In this document: positions 4,239 to 20,690 of the stretch, piece after piece | Position numbering within the stretch: the first letter of the stretch is position 1 | Layout of the letters: every line of letters begins with the position of its first letter | NCBI RefSeq assembly: GCF_006345805.1 | Contig: NW_021823908.1 | Location: forward strand, 1 to 20,801 | Length of the DNA stretch: 20,801 nt | Reading direction: 5' to 3' | Origin: Octopus sinensis | Taxonomy: Eukaryota | Notes under the pieces: model-generated | The model's input: only the letters and a program-made list of their open reading frames with translations | The model's database searches: none | What the model was told of the DNA's origin: nothing | Made by a program: the position numbers and the translations under genes

Positions 4239-5581
4239 GGAACACTGGGCATGCTGTGGAAGACATGCACTGGGGCTGCGGCACCTCCAAACATTCTGCG
4301 TAAATGGTGAACAGGTGTGGTCATCGTTTGTCAAACAGGCTTTTCCACATCTCATCTCCTTGAGTAAGCTGCAGTCGTGGGTCAAGAAGAGACCGAGGAA
4401 GGGTTACTGGCATCTGGAATGTTGCTAGGCACTCACTGTCCTCTACCAGGTGGGCAATGCGATCAGTAGAAAATCCACTCTGAAGTTCTATGGAGGGTTA
4501 GTGGAGGGAAAGTGCGATGAAGCACTTGGAGAGACGCTAGGCGTTGACAAAATTGAACTAACCAGTCTGTTGAGGAGGACTTTCAAGTGGGGACGATGGA
4601 TAACTTCTAGAAGTCCCTTGTTATGCAGTGCTGTCGGGGGGCACTGACGGTTCGAGATAAACTCTACAAGCACGGAAGTTCTGTCTGACCGACCTACCCG
4701 ACATGTGCGCAGAGCTATGAAATCATTCTGCACGCACTCGTCCAGTGTCCTTGCATGACTGACATGTGGAGTTATGTTGAACAGCTGTTATCACGTGTAC
4801 GGTGGTTCTATCTATCGGCCGAGTCCGTAGTGAAGATCGATCATCCACTCTCAATCAGTCCGGAATGTCAGGCAATTTACTTATGTCTAATAGCAGTAGC
4901 GAAAGAGGCTGTGTTGTGGACCAGGTTAAAAGGACTAAAGGCAGAGACTTTTCTCTACGGCCAATCACTCGTCAACTTTTTCAAATTTTCTTTGGAAAGA
5001 AGATGAGGGTGCAGAGTGAAGTGCTGCCTCCCAGTACATTTGCCAAAAGGTGGATGAATAGCGAAAATGGTACGTGTGAGTGGACTTACTCTAATAACAC
5101 GCTTTTGAGCTAGTGAATTTGAAAGAAAGGAGAGTGTTCTTCCCAGATGCTCTCGAAGCGTCGAGTGGTTCAGGATTGGGGTGGGGGTACCTGAGCCAAC
5201 TCCAGGGGATTACCTGCACCTATTACGAACTTTCATTGTTATATTCTTTTGTCGAATATCATTGTTATTCTTTTAACTGTGTACTCGTTGTCTCAGCGTT
5301 AAATCTCCACTGTCCATGTCTACTTTATCCTGTTTCTTTACTACCCACAAGGGGCTAAACACAGAAAAGACAAACAAGGACAGACAAACGGATTAAGTCG
5401 ATTATATCGATCACAGTGCGTAACTGGTACTTCTTTAATCGACCCCGAAAGGATGAAAGGCAAAGTCGACCTCGGGGGAAATTGAACTCCGAAGATAACG
5501 GCAGAAGAAATACCGCTTAGCATTTCGCCCGACGTACTAAAGATTCTGCCAGATCTCACCGCTATGCCGGCCCTATTGGCA

Positions 5582-5586
<5 letters not shown>
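4239..5586 (+). mobile_element. 5'-truncated, decayed Tx1/L1-clade LINE (subfamily B): ORF2 C-terminus and 3' UTR, interrupted by a SINE
   Basis: RHALGLRHLQ..GEQVWSSFVKQAFP..FYGGLVEGK..LHALVQCP..WSYVEQLLSRV is homologous to the 8206-9342 ORF; stops and frameshifts present; 3' end gccctattggcaaataa runs into (AAT)n. Confidence 0.88.
5331..5562 (-). mobile_element. tRNA-derived SINE with Meta-like central domain and LINE-like tail, copy 1
   Basis: Minus strand: A-box-like tggcagaatc, B-box-like gagttcaatttcc, central gcctttcatcctttcggggtcgat..gtaccag (MetaSINE-type domain, from recall), tail tctgtgtttagccccttgtgggtagtaaagaaaca. Confidence 0.85.
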
Positions 5587-5645: not shown

Positions 5646-6159
5646 GTAAGGGTTGTTGAAGGATGTTGAACGAAGATGTAGCCCATCTTCTTGGTATAGG
5701 GGATGGGCTCCAGCAAATATTCTGCTCAATACCACAGATTTGCTTGTCAGTTGCTCGACGTTAACCAGTTGAGCATGTCCCTTAGTGGCTGATGATATGT
5801 GCATCTCTGATCACAAGCAGAAGTAGTGGGGGAGTATCATAGCCATGTGTTGAGAGGGATTCTTTGGGGTTTGAATAATTCACCTCTGGAAACATGGGTG
5901 TTTCGTTCAAAATCCGTAAACAACTCTTACTCAGGGACCTTTTGAGCAGGATGGGTTACTCGACCAGAAGAAAATTCTAACTGGTCCCCACCTAAAAGGT
6001 CATGTGCTTTTTATCTTGATATGAGATCATCATGTTTCGCATTTATGGTTGTGATGCATGTGCCTGGTGTACCCTTATCAGACGGGGAGTCATGATGGGT
6101 ATACTGGGCTTCGTATATTTTACCCTAGTGTCACTTTGATGGCATGCACTGCTCTCTCA
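5645..6159 (+). mobile_element. Non-coding interspersed element inserted within (AAT)n; absent from duplicate copy 2
   Basis: ~515 bp complex sequence flanked on both sides by (AAT)n; the paralogous site (17989-18215) has only microsatellite. Orientation inferred from the AAT tail. Confidence 0.75.
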
Positions 6160-6199
<40 letters not shown>

Positions 6200-6721: not shown

Positions 6722-7080
6722 GTCTTAGGATGTGGAATGTTCGTATCAGCTAACACGGACCACGTCATCATAATACTGTCCACGAAGTGTTGATAGGAGC
6801 AAAGCTTATCCAGGAGAAGTCGGTGGGCCTGCAAATCGGCAGATGGAGAGGCAGACCCATACCAACCGACAGTTTGTAGGGCGCTAAAGTGAAAGACAGG
6901 TTAAACTGTTTGGGGTCTGGTCTGCTGTAGACCCCGAGGTGGGACAACAACGGGTGGGAGGTGACGAACAGGATAGTCGATCTCACCCAGAAATTGGCAG
7001 AGAGGAAGCTGTTCGTGAAGGGTCGAGTCGAGGTGGCGAATGCGTACATCGCTTCCGTCAACTATGACTGCCTGAATATA
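6722..7080 (+). mobile_element. Tx1/L1-clade LINE fragment (subfamily C), RT C-terminal region, cut at a rearrangement junction
   Basis: Degenerate YADD region (SANTDHVIIILS), GAKL.QEKSVGLQIG.WRG, VKLFGVW, ERKLFVKGRVEVANAYIASV; continues in the paralog at 19253-20330. Confidence 0.85.
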
Positions 7081-7612
7081 ATAATCACATTGTATCAAAC
7101 GCCAGGATACAAGTGTTCGTCTGGTACGTTGATTTCTGTTAATTTTTATGTCTTGACAAAGGCTGCGCTGATGAGTGAAAAGTGGATTTTGTGCACTAAT
7201 TACGGAATCATATGATGTTCAGCTACGTCTGTTTCTGGAGGCTCGCTTTGAGAGTTGCATTCCCTCGCGTTTTGTACAATGTGGGCATTATAGTAGTTTA
7301 TACTTCAAGAGACCCTCCTAGCGTGAGGCATTTATGTATAAGTAATGCCCTTAATATATATAAATATATTCATAGGGAATAATTAATAAGTTATCCCTTC
7401 TGAGGTTTTTCACAATAACTACTTGATAAATCCTCGTAAAAATGTTATCCTATATTTCAATTATATATATTTATTAGTAGCCCCAAACTTACTTTGTTAT
7501 ATATATACACACACACACACAATCATATGTATATATATATATATATATTTTACATATATGTATATATCTATGTATATGTGAGCGTGTGTATGTATATGTG
7601 TATGTGTTTCAG

Positions 7613-8119: not shown

Positions 8120-8205
8120 ATCTATCTATCGATCAATCAATCGATCTTCTATCTATATCTCTATCTATCTATCTACCTATATATCTACATATCTATCTAT
8201 CTATC
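8120..8205 (+). repeat. (TCTA)n microsatellite abutting the LINE 5' truncation point
   Basis: Directly visible; LINE coding sequence (tggaacgag, WNE) begins immediately after. Confidence 0.92.
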
Positions 8206-9705
8206 TGGAACGAGATAACGAGTAGGGTGGTCACTCTCGCCCAGCAATGGGCCGAGAGGAAAGTGTCCCTAAAAGGTCGGGCGGAGGTGGCGAAAGCCTA
8301 CATCGCGTCCATCATCTACTACCGCCTGACCGTCGTACCTTGTCCCGACCCTACCATCACCAAACTAGAACGCATCCTCTTCCGCTTCTTGTGGAAAGGA
8401 TGCTTCCCGATGGTCAGGCGATCCATTTGCTGCCAACACCCGTTAAAAGAAGGGCTGGACATGCCGTGGTTGATGATGCGCAGACACGCGCTGAGACTGC
8501 CACATCTCCGGCTCTATGTTCACGACGGTGAGCAGGTGTGGTCACCGTTTGTGAGGCACGCATTCCCGCAACTCGTCTCCATGACCGAACAACAGTCGTG
8601 GGTCAAAAATAGGCAGAGGAAGGGCGAATGGCACCGCGAGTGTCGCGTTGCTCTCAAGCAACTCTGCCGTCCCAGGTCGACCTCGAGTGACTTCAACACA
8701 ACCAAAGAATTCTATAGGGCATTAGTGGAGGGGAGGTACGACGACGATCTCGTGGCAAACCTGGGCGTCGACGAGGAATACCTGACCCGCCTGTTTCAAA
8801 CGACTTTCGGCCCGGGACCTATGGACAACTTCTAGAGATCCCTGGCCTGGCGGTGCTACCGAGAAGCGCTACCCGTTCGGGATAAGCTCTATAGGCATGG
8901 CTCGAGAAACACGGGGCCGACCTGCCCGAGATGCGGGCAGAGCGACGAAACCGCTCTGCACGCAATCGTTCAGTGTCCAGCAATTTCCGACCAGTGGGCT
9001 TATGTCGAACGACTGCTGTCACGTGTGGGACGTGTCGGTTTATCAGCCGAGTCTATCGTTAATATCGTCACGCCTCCTTCCTTCAAACGGGAAGGAAGAG
9101 CTATTTTTATCATACTTGTGGCTATGGCGAAAGAATGTATCTGGTGGACGCACCCGAAAGGATTGGAGACAAACACTTTCCTCTCTGGTCAATCTCTCAT
9201 CAAATTCTTCAAGTATCACATGAAGAGGAAAGTGAGAGTAGAGAGGCAAATTTTGTCTAGCGAATGTTTTAAAAAAAGATGGGTGAATGTAGCAAGGATG
9301 GCACGTATGAATGACGAAGCCACCTTGACTATGATTCTATGAACCGTAAAAATTAATACAGAGAGTTGCTTATTTGCAAAAAAAAATAAAAGAAAGAAAT
9401 ATAACATGTGACTTCATTGACCGAGGTTACCGTGGTCTTTTCCGTAGCGTTTTCTTTACACTTCATATTGACATTTCTGTGATTACGATCCCTATTGATC
9501 AACTTTTTTTCCTCTCCCCTTTCCTTTTATTTTTTTCCCTCTCCCCCCTTTTTTAAAAAAATCCTCCCCTTTTTTGTCCTCTTTCTTTCCTTTTACGATC
9601 CCTTTTGATCGAAACCCAACCCCCTTTTTTTTACCCCCAAAAGAAAAGCTCTACCTTGTAATTTGTTCTATCTGTGTGCAGCCCTGTGTGGCTAATAAAG
9701 AAACA
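8206..9705 (+). mobile_element. Young 5'-truncated Tx1/L1-clade LINE (subfamily A): ORF2 C-terminus with zf-RVT CCHC finger and complete 3' UTR
   Basis: One frame from 8206 to 9342 with a single internal TAG (8833-8835): WAERKVSLKGRAEVAKAYIASIIYY..FLWKG..GLDMPWL..AWRCYREALPVRDKL..CPRCGQSDETALHAIVQCP..W. Pyrimidine-rich 3' UTR with AATAAA, then a (TCTA)n tail. Confidence 0.93.
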
Positions 9706-9923
9706 TATCTATCTATCTATCTATCTATGTCCATCTATCTCTATCTATCCTTCTATCTATCTATCTATGTATCTATTTATCTATCTATCTATCAATCAAT
9801 CTATCTATCTATCTATGTCTATATATCTCTATCTATCTATCTATCTATCACTGTCTATCTATGACTATCTATATCTATCTTTCCATCTTTCTATCTATCT
9901 ATCTATCTATCTATCTTTATATT

Positions 9924-9961
<38 letters not shown>

Positions 9962-9975
9962 AATCTATCTATCAA
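9706..9975 (+). repeat. (TCTA)n microsatellite, LINE tail or target tract
   Basis: Directly visible; begins right after aataaagaaaca. Confidence 0.95.
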
Positions 9976-10783
9976 ACTATCATGTGTCTGTCTAGCTATC
10001 TCTCTATCAATCATTGTCTGTATCTTTATCTTTCTATCTCTCTATCTATTACGTCTCTCCATATATCGATATACATATATATATACACACATATATACAT
10101 TCATTTACATTTACTTATTTTCACACACACAAACACACACGCAGACACACACTTTCACACACACATATACATAATATAAAGGGAGAGGAAAATCAAATCA
10201 TGGGACGCAACTTACAAGCATTGTACTACAATCCAGGCTCTGGTAAACCACATCGAATGGTCCGGCAAAACGGGAAAATCTTTATGGTAAACAATCATTG
10301 TCTTTCACTTAGTTCCAAAATTCCGAGTTCACTATTTCGGGTTTTATCCTGTGTAAAAGACATTAAAATAAGAATTAAATGTTACACATGAAGTAACTTA
10401 CTTTTTAGCATATTTTATATACAATGCAATTTAGTTATTTTAAACCTGTGAACGACACGCCTTTCTGCTGCATGTATATTATAAGCATTAGCATCAGGTT
10501 ACATCCTGCTGGTTGAAAACTGTACCACCAGTATGCAGTAATTATAACTTTAGACTCAGATACTGATACCGGTGGAATGTAAAATATTAATATCATCATT
10601 TAATATTATCATTAATATTCACTTCAGTTTTATATTAAAGAAACTTATAGGCATGGTTATGTATCTCATTGCATCACACACAGACACACACACACACACA
10701 CACGCACACAGACACACACACAGATACTGGAAGATAATTAGTTTTTTTTTCCAATTTCCTTTTTTATCTTTCACTTTTTGCAG

Positions 10784-10924: not shown

Positions 10925-11349
10925 CTCTCTCTCTCTCTTTTTTACTCTTTTACTTGTTTCAGTGATTCGAATGTGGCCGTGCTGGAGCACCGCCTTTTGT
11001 CGAGTAAATCGACCCAAGGACTTATTCATGTAAGCCTAGTACTTCTTCTATCGGTCTCTTTAGCCGAACCGCTAACTTACAGGGACATAAACACACCAGC
11101 ATCGGTTATCAAGCAATGTTGGGGCGGGGCGGGACAAACACTGACATACAAACACACACATAGAAATATATATATATGCATATATACAACGGGCTTCTTT
11201 CAGTTTCCGTCTACTAAATCCACTCACAAGGCTTTAGTCGGCCCGAGGCTATAGTAGAAGACGCTCGCCCAAAGTGCCACGCAGTGGGATTGAACCCGGA
11301 ACAATGTGGTTGGTAAGCAAGCTACTTACCACACAGCCACTCCCGCGCC
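10925..11349 (-). mobile_element. Full-length tRNA-derived CORE-like SINE (octopus OR/OK-like)
   Basis: Minus strand: A box tggctgtgtgg (11329-11339), B box ggttcaatccc (11286-11296), CORE-like ggcactttgggcgag, internal CA/TA tract, A/G-rich tail. Confidence 0.9.
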
Positions 11350-11408
11350 TATAGAAGTTTGGAATATAATTGTGTCCATTATTATAATCGTTATATATCT
11401 CAGTGCAT

Positions 11409-13384: not shown

Positions 13385-13422
<38 letters not shown>

Positions 13423-13742
13423 GCATAATTGTGTGCTACTTCAATGAAAAAATGTATGGTAAATAAACAAATGACGCAATATATATATATGCGCACATAT
13501 ATATATATATAGATATATATAAACATTCAGTACCTCTTACGAACAGAGACTAACACCACTTTATTGGTAAGTTACGATTTTCATTATATTATATCGGCCT
13601 TCTATTGGCCATTGTCCAGTCTCCTCAACGGCATTAAGGATGGGATTAAAAGGTTCTCCACCCTTAAGACTTCAAAAATTTGTGTCCCCAAATTACCTAA
13701 AATGTTTTTTTATGCTTTTATTTTTACTTCAGTAATTTTCAG

Positions 13743-13956
13743 TTAACCCATTAGCATTGGCACTGGCCACGTCGGGCCCAAATATTCTTCCTGTTTTATG
13801 TGGAAACTGAACACATTAGCCCTTTCACAACAACCATGCAAAGTTATTCTAAAAGTAAGCAATCACATAATCAAAATCTCAAAGCTAGAAGATAACGTAT
13901 GATTAATTGTAAACGATGTGAATAATTAAGTAATTCATCTGAATGTTTAGGGAGTA
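13743..13956. mobile_element. piggyBac-like MITE, copy 2
   Basis: ttaa-cccattagcatt ... aatgtttaggg; paralog of 1284-1493. Confidence 0.45.
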
Positions 13957-14528
13957 TCCCCTTCTAGCTTGTATACTAATGAAACAGCAATTCCATCTCA
14001 AATTACAAGTGGGGTCTTTTTTAAGAACACATTTCAGGTTCGAGGGAGTGGTTAAGAATGTTAGTAGTCCAAAAAATCGGGTCGGTATTTTTCTTAGTAT
14101 TTGATTTTTAATTATTGTTTGAAGCCGAGAAGGGTCAAATGAGAGTAGAGACGGTTGAAAAGCAAAAATTTGAAGAAATTTGTGATGTGTGTTGGAGAGA
14201 TTTAGGAGGCTGAGAGGAGGATGAAAAATCGATTGATCATAATACTTGGAATAAATTTGGGATGCGTGTTATATATATTTATATTTCTGTAGGTATCTAT
14301 ATATATATGCTGACTACTTAATGTTTTTAATACTGTGTATTAATGTAGGAGTTTATATGTATATATATTGTGCGTATATGTGTGTTTGTTTGCATGTATG
14401 TATGTAAGAGCTTGTATGTATATATTATGTATTTGTAAATGCAACTTTGGATATTTCATATGTATTGCATATGCTCATATATATATATATATATATATAA
14501 TATATATATATATCTGTATATATATATA

Positions 14529-14571
<43 letters not shown>

Positions 14572-14689
14572 ATATATATATATGTATACATAGACACACA
14601 CATATATATTTGCTATTTGGAATGTGTTCACTTGTCGATTGTCAGGTTGACACTTGTTTTACATTACAGCTTTGATTATTTTGAATTAG

Positions 14690-15340
14690 GGAAGTGCATG
14701 AATGTCGAGCAGTATTTATGCTTACGATAAAAAATAACGTCAGAGAATTTAACAGTGAGGAGTTGTGGAGGCGAAGAATAGTTAATGACCCTTTTATACA
14801 TAACATACATTTACCTATATTTGTGTTGTAAAGGGGAGCTTCACATACTATGGACCACGATAGAGCGTATTGGACATTGTTTTGAATTGAGGTTGTATAT
14901 GTGTGTTGCTAAAGATTGAAATAGTTTAGATTCGGGATTAGTGAAAGAATACATATGAGCACGACAAAGACATTGAAAATCCTCAGTGCCATTAATATAC
15001 ACCCTTGCCTGGTGGGTGCATGGGGTAATCATTGGCACATACCGTATATTTCAGAAGCGCGACAGTTGCAAGTGGTTGGGGTTTACTATTAGTAATGTTG
15101 ATGTTGGTTGGTTTGTTGTTAGTGGGGAGAATCTAAATTAGGATTTATATTAGTATCGGATTGAGAGGTTGTAATGGAACTAATATTTGTCGTCTCGTAG
15201 ACAGGGTTGTAGAATGTTGGCTTAAGTTTAGTATTATACAATTGAGGTGGCTTATTAAGGTTTGTATTATTGTATTGTGAAGGTTCACTTGGGATTTTGG
15301 GGAAAATTTTGATTTTATCCACACATAAAGCCTACCGGTG
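14690..15340 (-). pseudogene. Penelope-like GIY-YIG endonuclease relic, copy 2
   Basis: ORF 14841-15038 gives ARVYINGTEDFQCLCRAHMYSFTNP..LATHIYNL; CNCR upstream; N/T/P/S-rich linker at 15119-15322. Confidence 0.8.
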
Positions 15341-15699
15341 TTTTATAAAGACTTATGGAACCACGTGACCGCTGCTAGCTTTGTTGTTGTTGATGTGTAT
15401 GTATTTTCAAAATGTTTTATTCTTCAACTTTGAGATGTATTGTTGATTTTTTTTATTTTATCTTACTATAATCAGCAACAAACAGCTTCCGTCAATATTA
15501 AATTCTTTATTGGATAAAAAAAAGACATTATCAAAACTTGAAGTTAAAACAAAACAAATGTGCTTTGTTTTCTTCCAGGCACCAATGTCCTGTAGCAATA
15601 GTCTTTCATCGACCGACCCTTCCTCCAAAAAAATCAGTGGAATCATTCGATCTCCATACACAAATTATTTTCCTCCTGGAACTATAAAAAAAGTTACAC

Positions 15700-15779
15700 A
15701 CATTAGGCGCACCTTTCTCTAAGCGTCACACTATATTTCCCAGGTAAAAAATAGCGGCTTATACACCGGAAAATACGGT
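15700..15779 (-). mobile_element. Probable Tc2/pogo-like DNA transposon terminus
   Basis: Minus strand reads ccgtattttccggtgtataagccgc..ggtgcgcctaat, resembling Tc2-type TIR starts (CCGTATTT..TATAAG.CGC), from recall. Confidence 0.5.
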
Positions 15780-16623
15780 GTTTCTTTTTTTGTCATATTC
15801 ATATCGACTTTTCCTCCATAAACGTTACACAAACACTTGACTGCGCATGCCTGAATATCTACATTAAAGCATTTTCTAAGCTAAATTCTCTGCCTGATCT
15901 ACAGGCTCATTAGGCCCCCAGTATATCTCGGTATCGAACGTATTTCAACACACAAGGATACAACACACCGGATACCAGTCTGTCGCAATGTTAACCCCTG
16001 GTTAATGCTGGTGCTTTTCAGATGAGAGCACTGGAAGTGTCTTTCTCGTGGACACAACTTACCGAAACAATAATCCATACGCCTATATGTGTGTGTGCGC
16101 GCTTATGTACATATCCGTGCGTATGTGGGTGTATTTTTGTATGCATGTACACACACACACACACAATCTTTTATTCTTTTAATCTTTTGCTTATTTAAGG
16201 TGAATTTTAAAGTCGTTATGCCAATCACATAATCCCCTTCCGACATAGGCCAAAAGTAAAGCTACGAAAGTGGCTAAGTTTGGAAGAAAACGAAACACCA
16301 CATGTGACTGGATGGGAAGTAATTGAGAATCCATAACTTATGTGAATGGATCGAATAAATATAAGCTTTATTTAGCTGAAAGAGTGCATATCCTGTTCAG
16401 ATCTAAGATGCTTAATCCTCTATTGGACTCTAGGTCGGGCATTTTCAGTCGTGGTCAAGTATAAATATATTTTGAAGAACAGAAAAATTCCGTCTATTCT
16501 TGATTAAATTTTTGATATCTTTTTAGCCTTATAATTGAAGGTCTAACGAGGAGAACTTTTAAATGCTGTTTTTACTTTTCCCTTTTCCCATTTTCGTTTT
16601 TGTGCTTTCGCTGTCCGATTTCC

Positions 16624-17993
16624 GGAACACTGGGCATGCTGTGGAAGACATGCACTGGGGCTGCGGCATCTCCAAACATCCTGCGTAAATGGTGAACAGG
16701 TGTGGTCATCGTTTGTCAAACAGGCTTTTCCACATCTCATCTCCTTGAGTAAGCTGCAGTCGTGGGTCAAGAAGAGACCGAGGAAGTGTTACTGGCATCT
16801 GGAATGTTGCTAGGCACTCACTGTCCTCTACCAGGTGGGCAATGCGATCAGTGGAAAATCCACTCTGAAGTTCTATGGAGGGTTAGTGGAGGGAAAGTGC
16901 GATGAAGCACTTGGAGAGACGCTAGGCGTTGACAAAATTGAACTAATCAGTCTGTTGAGGAGGACTTTCAAGACGGGGATAATGGATAACTTCTAGAAGT
17001 CCCTTGCTTTGCAGTGCTATCGGGGGGCACTGCCGGATCGAGATAAACTCTACAAGCACGGAATTGCTGTCTGATCGACCTACCCGAGGTATGCGCAGAG
17101 CGATGAAAGCGTTCTGCACGCACTCGTCCAGTGTCCTTGCATTACTGACTTGTGGAGTTATGTTGAAAAGCTGTTATTAAGTGTAGGGAGTTTCTATCTA
17201 TCGGCCGAGTCCGTAGTGAAGATCGATCAGCCGATTTCCATCAGTCCGGAAGGTCAGGCAATTTACTTCTGTCTAATAGCAAGTAGCGAAAGTGGCTGTA
17301 TTGCGGACCAGGTTAAACGGACTAAAGGCAGAGAATTTACTCTACGGCCAATCACGGGTCAACTTTTTCAAATTTCCTTTGGAAAGGAAGATGAGGGTGC
17401 AGAGTGAAGTGCTGCCTCCCAGTACATTTGCCAAAAGGTGGATGAACAGAGAAAATGGTACGTGTGAGTGGACCTACTCTAGTAAAGTAACTGTGGGCTA
17501 GTGAATTTGAAAGGGAGGAGAGTGCCCTTCCCAGATGCTCTCGAAGCGTCGAGTGGTTCAGGATTGGGGTGTGGGTACCTGAGCCAACTCCAGGGGATTA
17601 CCTGCACCTATTACAACATTTCATTGTTATATTCTTTTGTCAGATATCATTGTTAATCTTTTAACTGTGTACTCGTTGTCTCTGCGTGAAATCCCCACTG
17701 TCCATACTGTATCCTGTTTCTTTACTACCCACAAGGGGCTAAACACAGAGAGGACAAAAAAAGACAGACAAACGGATTAAGTCGATTATATCGACCACCG
17801 TGCGTAACTGGTACTTCTTTAATCGACCCCGAAAGGATGGAAGGCAAAGTCGACCTCGGGGGAATTTGAACTCAGGAGGTAACGGCAGAAGAATTACCGC
17901 TAAGCATTTCGCTCGACGTACTGAAGATTCTGCCAGCTCTCACCGCATTTTCGACTGTATCTTCTCCCATATGCCGGCCCTATTGGCAAATAA
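16624..17993 (+). mobile_element. Tx1/L1-clade LINE subfamily B, copy 2, with SINE inserted in the 3' UTR
   Basis: Paralog of 4239-5586; retains 23 bp of UTR after the SINE that copy 1 lacks. Confidence 0.88.
17715..17946 (-). mobile_element. tRNA-derived Meta-like SINE, copy 2
   Basis: B box gagttcaaattcc on the minus strand; paralog of 5331-5562. Confidence 0.85.
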
Positions 17994-18032
17994 TAATAAT
18001 AATAATAATAATAATATAATAATAATTAATAA

Positions 18033-18063
<31 letters not shown>

Positions 18064-19235: not shown

Positions 19236-19252
19236 TATATGTATATATGTGT

Positions 19253-20330
19253 GTCTTAGGATGTGGAATGTTCGTATCAGCTAACACGACTGTGTCATCA
19301 TAATACTGTCCACGAAGCGTTGATAGGGGCAAAGCTTATCCAAGAGAAGTCGGTGGGCCTGCAAATCGGCAGACGGAGAGGCAGACCCGTACCAACCGAC
19401 AGTTTGTAGGGCGCTAGACGGAAAGACAGGTTAAACTGCTTGGGGTCTGGTCTGCTGTAGACCTCGAGGTGGACAACCACGGGTGGGAGGTGACGAACAG
19501 GATAGTCGATCTCACCCAAAAATTGGCAGAGAGGAAGCTGTTCGTGAATGGTCGAGTCGAGGTGGCGAATGCGTACATCGCTTCCGTCATCTATGACTGC
19601 CTGAATGTAGTCCCATGCCCGATAAAGTTAGAGCGTTTGTTATTCCGCTTTCTAAAGAAGGGACGTGTTCCGCTCATCAGACGGTCCATCTTCTGTCAAC
19701 AACCTCTCAGTGGAGTACTGGACATGCCGTTGCTAATGATTCGCAGACATGCGCTGAGACTGCGACAGCTCCTTCGTTTCTTTAGCGGTGAGAATAGGGG
19801 ATTGACTGTTTGTCAAACGGGACATTCTGCTGCTCGTCTCACTGAAGAAGCTACTGTACTGAGTCAAGCGTTGGCCAAGAAAGGGCGCTTGGCACCTGGA
19901 GTGTCGGCAAGCTCTCACAGCTTTCTGCCTGTCGGGCAACGTGGGCGTTGATAGTTCCACCTTGGATTTCTATAGGGGATTAGTAGAGGGGAAAGTACAA
20001 CGACGAAATCGGGGTAAATTCTGGGCGTTGGTGGATGGAATCAACTAACTGGTCCTTAACTTCCAGAAATCCTTGGCCTGGCAGTGCTACCGGGGAGCTC
20101 TGCCGATTCAAGACAAGCTCTACAGATACGAAAGTGTTGTCGGACGGATATGTCGGGGGTGTGCGCAGGGCGATGAAATAGTCCTGCATGCACTCGTCCA
20201 TCCAGTTTACGAGCCGAGTTCATTGTAAAGATCGCCCCGCCACCTTCTTTAGGCCGGGAATGAAAAGCAGTTTCTTCTGCCCGGTGGCTAAACAAGTAGT
20301 GTGGTGGACCAGACTGAAAACATTAAAGAT
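19253..20330 (+). mobile_element. Tx1/L1-clade LINE subfamily C, decayed ORF2 from RT end to zf-RVT
   Basis: ORF 19469-19951 (ERKLFVNGRVEVANAYIASVIY..LFRFLKKGRVPLIRRS..LDMPLLMIRRHALRL), then NFQKSLAWQCYRGAL and CAQGDEIVLHALV; several internal deletions. Confidence 0.9.
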
Positions 20331-20388
20331 TAAACCTCCTTCACAATGAAATTATGTCATTTGATATTATCATTTAATATTATCATTA

Positions 20389-20615
20389 AACACAAACTGA
20401 CACAAACTGACACACAAACACACACATAGAAATATATATATATGCATATATACAACGGGCTTCTTGCAGTTTCCGTCTACTAAATCCACTCACAAGGCTT
20501 TAGTCGGCCCGAGGCTATAGTAGAAGCCGCTCGCCCAAAGTGCCACGCAGTGGGATTGAACCCGGAACAATGTGGTTGGTAAGAAAGCTACTTACCACAC
20601 AGCTACTCCCGCGCC
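20389..20615 (-). mobile_element. 5' half of the CORE-like SINE (duplicate of ~11140-11349; 3' half deleted)
   Basis: A and B boxes present; the flank 20616-20801 matches 11350-11533. Confidence 0.9.
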
Positions 20616-20690
20616 TATTGAAGTTTGGAATATAATTGTGTCCATTATTATAATCGTTATATATCTCAGTGCATAACACACACACAGGCA

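Follow-up and report, generated by a model that had tools for sequence, protein, structure and literature searches.

As far as the accessible parts of the published accounts go, known tail-sharing partners of the L1 clade are restricted to plants and algae, and ties between Tx1 elements and SINEs run through a shared target only. The stringent L1-clade pairs are ZmSINE2/3 with LINE1-1_ZM and SINEX-3_CR with L1-1_CR (Ohshima 2012, PMC3472496; Ohshima 2013, PMC3747384), and the available portion of Ohshima's pair table holds L1-clade tails from maize, sorghum and Chlamydomonas only, with no Tx1 or octopus pair among them (PMC3747384). On the Tx1 side, SINEU of crocodilians has been linked to Tx1-Mar by its target alone in the text available (Kojima 2015, PMC4494074). 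The partners given for bivalve SINEs are CR1, CR1-Zenon, L2 and Nimb, and the LINE-derived consensus regions of SINEBase are Bov-B, CR1 and L2, in both cases according to the excerpts available. In the literature that we searched we found neither a tail-sharing Tx1–SINE pair, which Repbase, Dfam or the SINEBase supplements may already record, nor a LINE partner for octopus SINEs, which Repbase or Dfam may record. SINEs make up 11.6% of the O. vulgaris genome, with a SINE/LINE burst at JC 0.065 (PMC13282606, as partly accessible), and a partnership of this kind in octopus would identify the machinery that drove a large share of the SINE expansion.

The window analysed here is the whole stretch of 20,801 nt of Octopus sinensis DNA, in which an initial annotation had noticed that a LINE and a tRNA-derived SINE end alike. 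The LINE, which we call family A, is a 5′-truncated L1/Tx1-like element on the plus strand (8207–9705), recognised by its ORFs and zf-RVT domain and ending without poly(A); its ORF2 remnant (8207–9342) contains an in-frame stop (8833–8835) and is followed by the 3′ UTR (9343–9705). The sequence on both sides, also on the plus strand, is (TATC)n, the microsatellite target of this family, at 8120–8206 on the left and at 9706–9990 on the right, the last boundary being approximate. The portion of the LINE tail homologous to the SINE tail (9662–9705, plus strand) comprises a conserved T-rich block, a hairpin at 9680–9693 (4 bp, 6-nt loop) and AATAAA at 9694–9699. The reported similarity was reproduced, as positions 9671–9705 and the reverse complement of 5331–5365 are identical at 29/35 positions without gaps, and a second SINE copy (17715–17749) matches the LINE terminus equally well (29/35), with local alignment extending to 36/44. 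The best hit on the 232-nt SINE reached at most 21/35 in 2,000 shuffles, and 21/35 is also the score of the next-best site for the LINE 35-mer anywhere in the window; the tails thus align far beyond chance.

The match lies at the 3′ terminus of both elements, as had been claimed: LINE copies share their end base, SINE copies end there with target-site duplications (TSDs), and both small hairpins can form. Since 25 of the 30 top DNA hits of the window LINE share its 5′ truncation point, and are therefore copies of one insertion, independent copies were sought through exact-tail patterns. In five independent family A copies (four loci) the 3′ end base is identical and the 5′ truncations are all different, and the genome contains 4,253 exact copies of the 33-nt tail (macro-repeat copies included), against none for the reversed control. 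In 26 of the first 30 independent copies on contig C1, two or more TATC units come within 20 nt after the 3′ end, and poly(A) is absent after the tail in all 30 inspected. The possibility that the LINE tail is a SINE fragment inserted behind the LINE was ruled out by the presence of the tail in all independent LINE copies. Longer copies of family A encode APE, RT and zf-RVT, together with an ORF1 containing a weak zinc knuckle.

The SINE (5331–5562, minus strand) is approximately 230 nt long and consists of a head with A/B-box-like motifs, a core, and a probably LINE-derived tail of about 60 nt with its hairpin at 5343–5355. ARAGORN and Rfam found no tRNA match for it, and the box motifs, which are visible in the SINE majority sequence, suggest a tRNA origin of the head. 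The exact tail has 50,810 matches in the genome; TSDs of 13–18 bp surround 7 of the 32 SINE copies having a 5′ end, many of the others being array heads, and no poly(A) follows the SINE in the copies inspected. This SINE may resemble the octopus OR1/OR2 elements, reportedly treated by Ohshima and Okada in 1994, in being an abundant octopod SINE with a tRNA-like head. OR1/OR2 have been cited as CORE-SINEs, with no LINE partner given in the available parts of the citing papers (PMC4824008, PMC4758252). Sister families of the SINE studied here keep its core and differ in the tail, with divergence starting about 60 nt from the end, which bounds the borrowed portion; the combination of a shared core with different tails points to a transfer from LINE to SINE.

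In the window, the SINE entered the 3′ UTR of a second, degraded LINE in antisense, producing a 13-bp duplication of which the left copy lies at 5317–5329 (plus strand), whereas its right counterpart has been lost at this locus and persists in paralogues. This LINE, family B, retains the 3′ part of ORF2 and the 3′ UTR (4306–5330, plus strand; 66% DNA identity to family A), is split by the SINE, and resumes in its 3′ terminus (5563–5586, plus strand, with a hairpin at 5568–5580), followed by (AAT)n. The similar end at 5570–5586, which the initial annotation ascribed to 'subfamily B', is the tail of LINE B; it has 27 exact copies, and all 20 that were fetched trace to one insertion amplified by the macro-repeat of the window, so that it provides no independent support for the shared tail. 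Family B searches for independent copies returned macro-repeat copies only. The macro-repeat, of which the window is a part, measures 10–12 kb, consists of nested LINE, SINE and microsatellite pieces, and is present in dozens of copies at 93–99% identity on contigs C29, C97, C1144, C11144, C12053 and others. By self-BLAST, 931–5649 matches 13386–18056 at 91% and 1–827 matches 9754–10586, and the second copy of the same SINE insertion (17715–17946, minus strand) is a segmental duplicate lying within LINE B (16691–17714 and 17947–17993). The window also holds a separate repeat, some 510 nt long and bounded by an (AAT)n tract on either side (5650–6160), and a third degraded Tx1-like family (6727–7130 and 19250–20340), 68–75% identical to family A and starting right after (TA)n.

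In order to place the SINE tail among octopus LINEs, tails were sampled by a zf-RVT search, in which 150 of 24,041 candidates were scored and 70 loci were read, and by a protein search, with 150 of 22,667 candidates scored and 50 read, in a survey confined to L1/Tx1-like LINEs. The same end, formed by TCTRTGT, a hairpin of 3–5 bp and AATAAAGAAA, is found in 36 sampled tail types belonging to L1/Tx1-like LINEs and to elements that carry ORF1 only. Over the last 45 nt, the numbers of positions identical to the SINE majority are 39 for M and D1, 38 for D2 and J1, 37 for J2, 36 for E4 and 35 for E3, so that seven of the 36 tails are closer to the SINE than that of family A (34/45); the tail of family P, with 33/45, is no better than A's. 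The best tail match is that of family M, with 29/30 over the last 30 nt. Families D, E, J, P and M have a hairpin of the SINE type. The upstream block of the SINE (26–29 nt) is matched best by families F and K, whose hairpins differ. A pattern for a LINE joining an F/K-type upstream block to the SINE hairpin gave 111 hits, and the 30 that were fetched are K-type LINEs or SINE variants. A fuzzy scan of the fetched DNA yielded 163 hairpin tails, of which 66 lack the core of the SINE.

Family M emerged from a search with a SINE-excluding pattern, four of whose eight hits belong to this new family. ORF2 homology in the sense orientation is absent upstream of the M tail in all 18 loci, ORF1 homology is present in 6 of them, and no Pfam family was detected in the single frame scanned. 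Its divergence (6.5%) is similar to that of the SINE (5.8%), and its flanks differ from those of the SINE. A second ORF1-only element was found at L306:39–1529. Elements of this type would have to move in trans, and they support the tail as the handle by which they do so.

For the covariation analysis, the 36 tail types and the SINE, picked by hand, related to one another and leaving out P, were aligned with MAFFT, and a 4-pair stem was taken from the SINE. Stem cells are paired in 73% of cases, compared with 57.8 ± 2.5 after shuffling, and the covariation score is 0.485, against 0.238 ± 0.037 in shuffles (0/500) and at most 0.191 in each of six slid controls, although two of the five measures are not significant, the rows are hand-picked and the shuffles ignore relatedness. 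A tail's own stem arms form 3.15 Watson–Crick pairs, against 2.39 ± 0.12 for swapped arms (0/5,000), and the best Watson–Crick stems average 3.68, against 2.71 ± 0.12 in shuffles that again ignore relatedness. RNAalifold gave no consensus structure for the tails, and five single-tail folds are weak and not significant (z from −0.29 to −1.81). The covariation that the initial annotation had proposed to look for thus exceeds both shuffled and slid controls in these comparisons, and the hairpin is supported by comparison and not by energy. On sequence comparison, the tail of the SINE is homologous to the 3′ terminus of an L1/Tx1-like LINE radiation and was likely taken from it, since the shared end recurs in 36 tail types and its stem appears to covary. 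That this end is instead a 3′-processing or polyadenylation signal with adjoining T-rich sequence, with a relaxed enzyme, or one of another clade, moving the SINE, seems to us highly improbable. The AATAAA within the shared stretch, the weakness of the hairpin and a survey made of L1/Tx1-like tails would be compatible with such a signal, but the SINE majority carries AGTAAA rather than AATAAA, the inspected copies have no poly(A) after them, the homology spans the T-rich block as well as the hairpin, and the ORF1-only elements keep the same end.

Regarding the identity of these LINEs, APE, RT and a C-terminal zf-RVT are above the Pfam cut-off in the ORF2 of families A, D, E, K and P, and the nearest solved structure to a family D query is L1 ORF2p (E 2e-68, compared with 2e-24 for R2). 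A zf-CCHC was found in all six ORF1s of one scan, three of them over the cut-off and A's two below it (E 0.002–0.004), and also in P, and no L1 ORF1 family was reported in the ORF1 Pfam scans. An ORF1 with a CCHC zinc knuckle is a feature of the Tx1 clade. Preference for a target sequence has been defined for Tx1 elements as its presence in more than 20% of flanks (PMC4494074, in the part available), and here it amounts to 26/30 in (TATC)n for A and 30/30 at SINE base 47–48 for P, with the copies of K lying at one site of a second SINE. Neither the 120 listed homologues nor the cluster members or Atlas hits include a named Tx1 sequence, and the closest named homologue among those listed is that of Argonauta hians; we infer the name Tx1, rather than L1, from target specificity and ORF1 type. 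An ORF2 tree was built from nine families, F, B, M and N being left out, together with 11 relatives that are unnamed or come from databases. In this tree D, E, J and P group as one clade (100/100), and A branches outside the remaining eight families (100/98).

Several further observations concern related elements. Family K is young and Tx1-like (median divergence 0.6%; L248–L251, L255, L256, L259 and most of L260–L289) and occupies one constant position within the A-box region of the second, tRNA-like SINE family, which is represented in the window at 11133–11350 and 20399–20620 (minus strand); at L107, the SINE studied here sits 3 nt from the K site in this second family, with a 17-bp duplication. 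At L145, a Tx1-like tail directly abuts, on its downstream side, what looks like a complete U1 snRNA sequence, which may reflect either a family that targets U1 or a following copy with a U1 head. The related LINE at L194 terminates in a (TC)n tract, as Kibi does, and on the minus strand of L210, near 830–1250 of the reversed locus, a 5′-truncated Tx1-like copy interrupts the core of a third SINE family and is apparently flanked by a duplication of ~10 bp. Several Tx1-like families also occur in head-to-tail runs, about 3.6–5.7 kb apart and with constant 3′ flanks (L146–L153; C3:72.50–72.53 Mb and C9:76.61–76.62 Mb), a pattern suggesting that they insert repeatedly at the junction they form.

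Our main reading, to which we assign a probability of roughly 0.7, is that the tail of the SINE is LINE-derived and that the SINE was likely copied in trans by an ORF2p of the D/E/J/P clade rather than by that of family A. The initial annotation had taken the LINE in the window as the partner, on the strength of the 29/35 tail match, and the target sites speak against this. Leaving out macro-repeat loci and 15 TATC-selected loci, 125 SINE ends were obtained, 74 of them outside P loci; 36 of the 74 join another SINE (33 at base 47), 13 join a TA repeat and 25 other DNA, and none of these unselected ends lies in (TATC)n, compared with 26/30 for family A. Family A is also younger than most SINEs, with a non-CpG divergence from the majority of 2.4% (n = 20) against 5.8% (n = 67), or 0.3% against 4.4% without subfamily columns, and it falls outside the clade bearing the SINE-type hairpin. 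Genome-wide, 51 SINE-type tails are followed by TATCTATCTAT. This is about 0.1% of 50,810 and a few times the roughly 6–15 expected from a background of 0 to 3e-4 per base, and all 15 TATC-flanked tails that were fetched are SINEs. The SINEs inside (TATC)n (L225–L239) are enriched in a stem C variant (22/51, compared with 5 of the first 100 listed and 4/37), which together with the excess over background makes a rare use of A's enzyme, and hence minor cross-mobilisation of the SINE by family A, possible. As the main partner, family A appears decidedly improbable, and for the bulk of SINE copies this reading is largely refuted; the LINE of the window is probably not the main driver. The broader proposal of a stringent Tx1-clade LINE survives at the level of the clade, through the homologous tail, the apparently covarying stem and the ORF1-only passengers, and is not supported for this particular LINE. 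Two outcomes that had been named as adverse did occur in part for A: a better-matching tail exists (39/45 against 34/45), though in the same clade, and A is younger than most SINE copies, as the divergences indicate.

One LINE that ended directly on a SINE body defines family P, for which 40 of 460 candidates were scored, all at least 99% identical. SINE base 47–48 directly follows P in 30/30 loci (query locus included), and the 20 loci that were extended all contain a full-length element of 5.29–5.36 kb with SINE bases 1–62 upstream, an open ORF2 of 1,134 aa being kept in 6 of them. In the 16-nt duplication around P, the subfamily base at its start agrees on both sides in 20/20 loci, but the duplication is fully identical on both sides in just 6/20 and left-side variants recur, so SINE sequence carried by the P RNA is likely part of the 5′ junction. 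Base 47 is used both by P (30/30) and by SINE self-joins (33/36), and the motif at the 38 non-self SINE ends, D-R-T-A-W, is a relaxed version of the P site. With a divergence of ~0%, against 5.8% for the SINE, the present form of P cannot be the source of most SINE copies, and the near-identity of present P copies implies that the bulk of the SINEs was likely made by an older member of the clade. As regards the P/D/E/J clade as partner, the SINE target is that of P and the SINE age is not that of P and agrees with that of the ORF1-only M; no single sampled family fits the SINE in tail, target and age together.

The SINE arrays contribute to the same question. The 28 adjacent array units differ by a median of 8.2%, compared with 10.0% between arrays, several adjacent pairs are near-identical, the upstream unit is slightly younger (p = 0.052), and private changes shared by several adjacent units number 3.6, against 1.1 between arrays; this mixed divergence indicates that arrays arise by both insertion and local duplication. 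It is conceivable, if unlikely, that base-47 self-insertion reflects RNA read-through pairing or local duplication, that P is a late coloniser of the site, and that the driver of a SINE whose tail is LINE-derived is unsampled or extinct. Such a history would account for the youth of P relative to most SINEs, the SINE-derived sequence that P RNA probably carries, the near-identical array units, and the different flanks of M, which is of SINE age. It accords poorly with the use of one base by P and by SINE self-joins, with most adjacent units differing as separate insertions would, and with the motif being kept at non-self sites, and it would still require a nick. A late arrival of P also leaves the partnership at the clade level intact.

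Returning to copying of the SINE by the D/E/J/P clade, we propose the following mechanism. LINEs of the radiation lack poly(A) and terminate in TCTRTGT, a short hairpin and AATAAAGAAA, the letters of the stem changing with pairing apparently kept. ORF2p would recognise this end, presumably its stem-loop, on any RNA and start target-primed reverse transcription there, and the same recognition would move the ORF1-only elements. Landing depends on the family, as seen for A in (TATC)n, K inside the second SINE family and P at base 47–48 of the SINE. The enzyme that moves the SINE would have P-like specificity, inserting at base 47 of older SINEs, with 5′ ends resolved by homology to give head+(184-nt)n arrays, and using looser D-R-T-A-W sites elsewhere, with duplications of 13–18 bp; most SINE copies would probably come from an older member of the D/E/J/P clade. 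We give even odds to the further idea of a closed loop, in which a stringent, poly(A)-independent Tx1-like lineage moves the SINE via the shared 3′ hairpin and also uses the SINE as its landing site. If true, the SINE passenger would multiply the safe harbour of its driver, and ORF1-only elements would ride on the same tail. An animal radiation of L1/Tx1-type elements that has an apparently covarying hairpin, lacks poly(A) and offers dozens of tail variants as well as young copies of full length allows a test of whether stringency is ancestral among L1-like enzymes, and of how recognition of the tail and choice of the target come to evolve separately.

We compare this system with known ones as they are described in the accessible portions of the sources. 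Family A, like Kibi, Koshi and the crocodilian microsatellite-targeting Tx1 elements, is an APE-type LINE specific for a microsatellite, but its target is (TATC)n and theirs are (TC)n, (TTC)n, (TTCC)n or (TTTC)n (PMC4494074). Family M and the element at L306:39–1529 encode an ORF1-like protein alone, as does HAL1 (half-L1; PMC5753468), but they derive from Tx1-like LINEs and have a hairpin tail in common with a SINE. The single-nucleotide hotspot of Alu insertion into Alu likewise involves a SINE inserting at one base of its own family, and no autonomous LINE family restricted to that base is reported in the part of that paper available (PMC2836564). In SINEU/Tx1-Mar, as here, a SINE and a Tx1 LINE share a landing site inside another repeat, SINE insertions occur in tandem, and Tx1 copies may carry 5′ sequence derived from an RNA gene. 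SINEU has snRNA heads, poly(A) tails and a Mariner target, with no LINE sharing its 3′ end in the available text (PMC4494074), whereas here the tail is shared, poly(A) is absent and the target is the SINE itself. In tail architecture the parallel is with the ZmSINE and SINEX pairs, in which an L1-clade LINE and a tRNA SINE have a common 3′ end of about 50 nt with a variable stem and conserved hairpin flanks; those pairs belong to plants and algae, and in octopus the end is shared by dozens of target-specific families.
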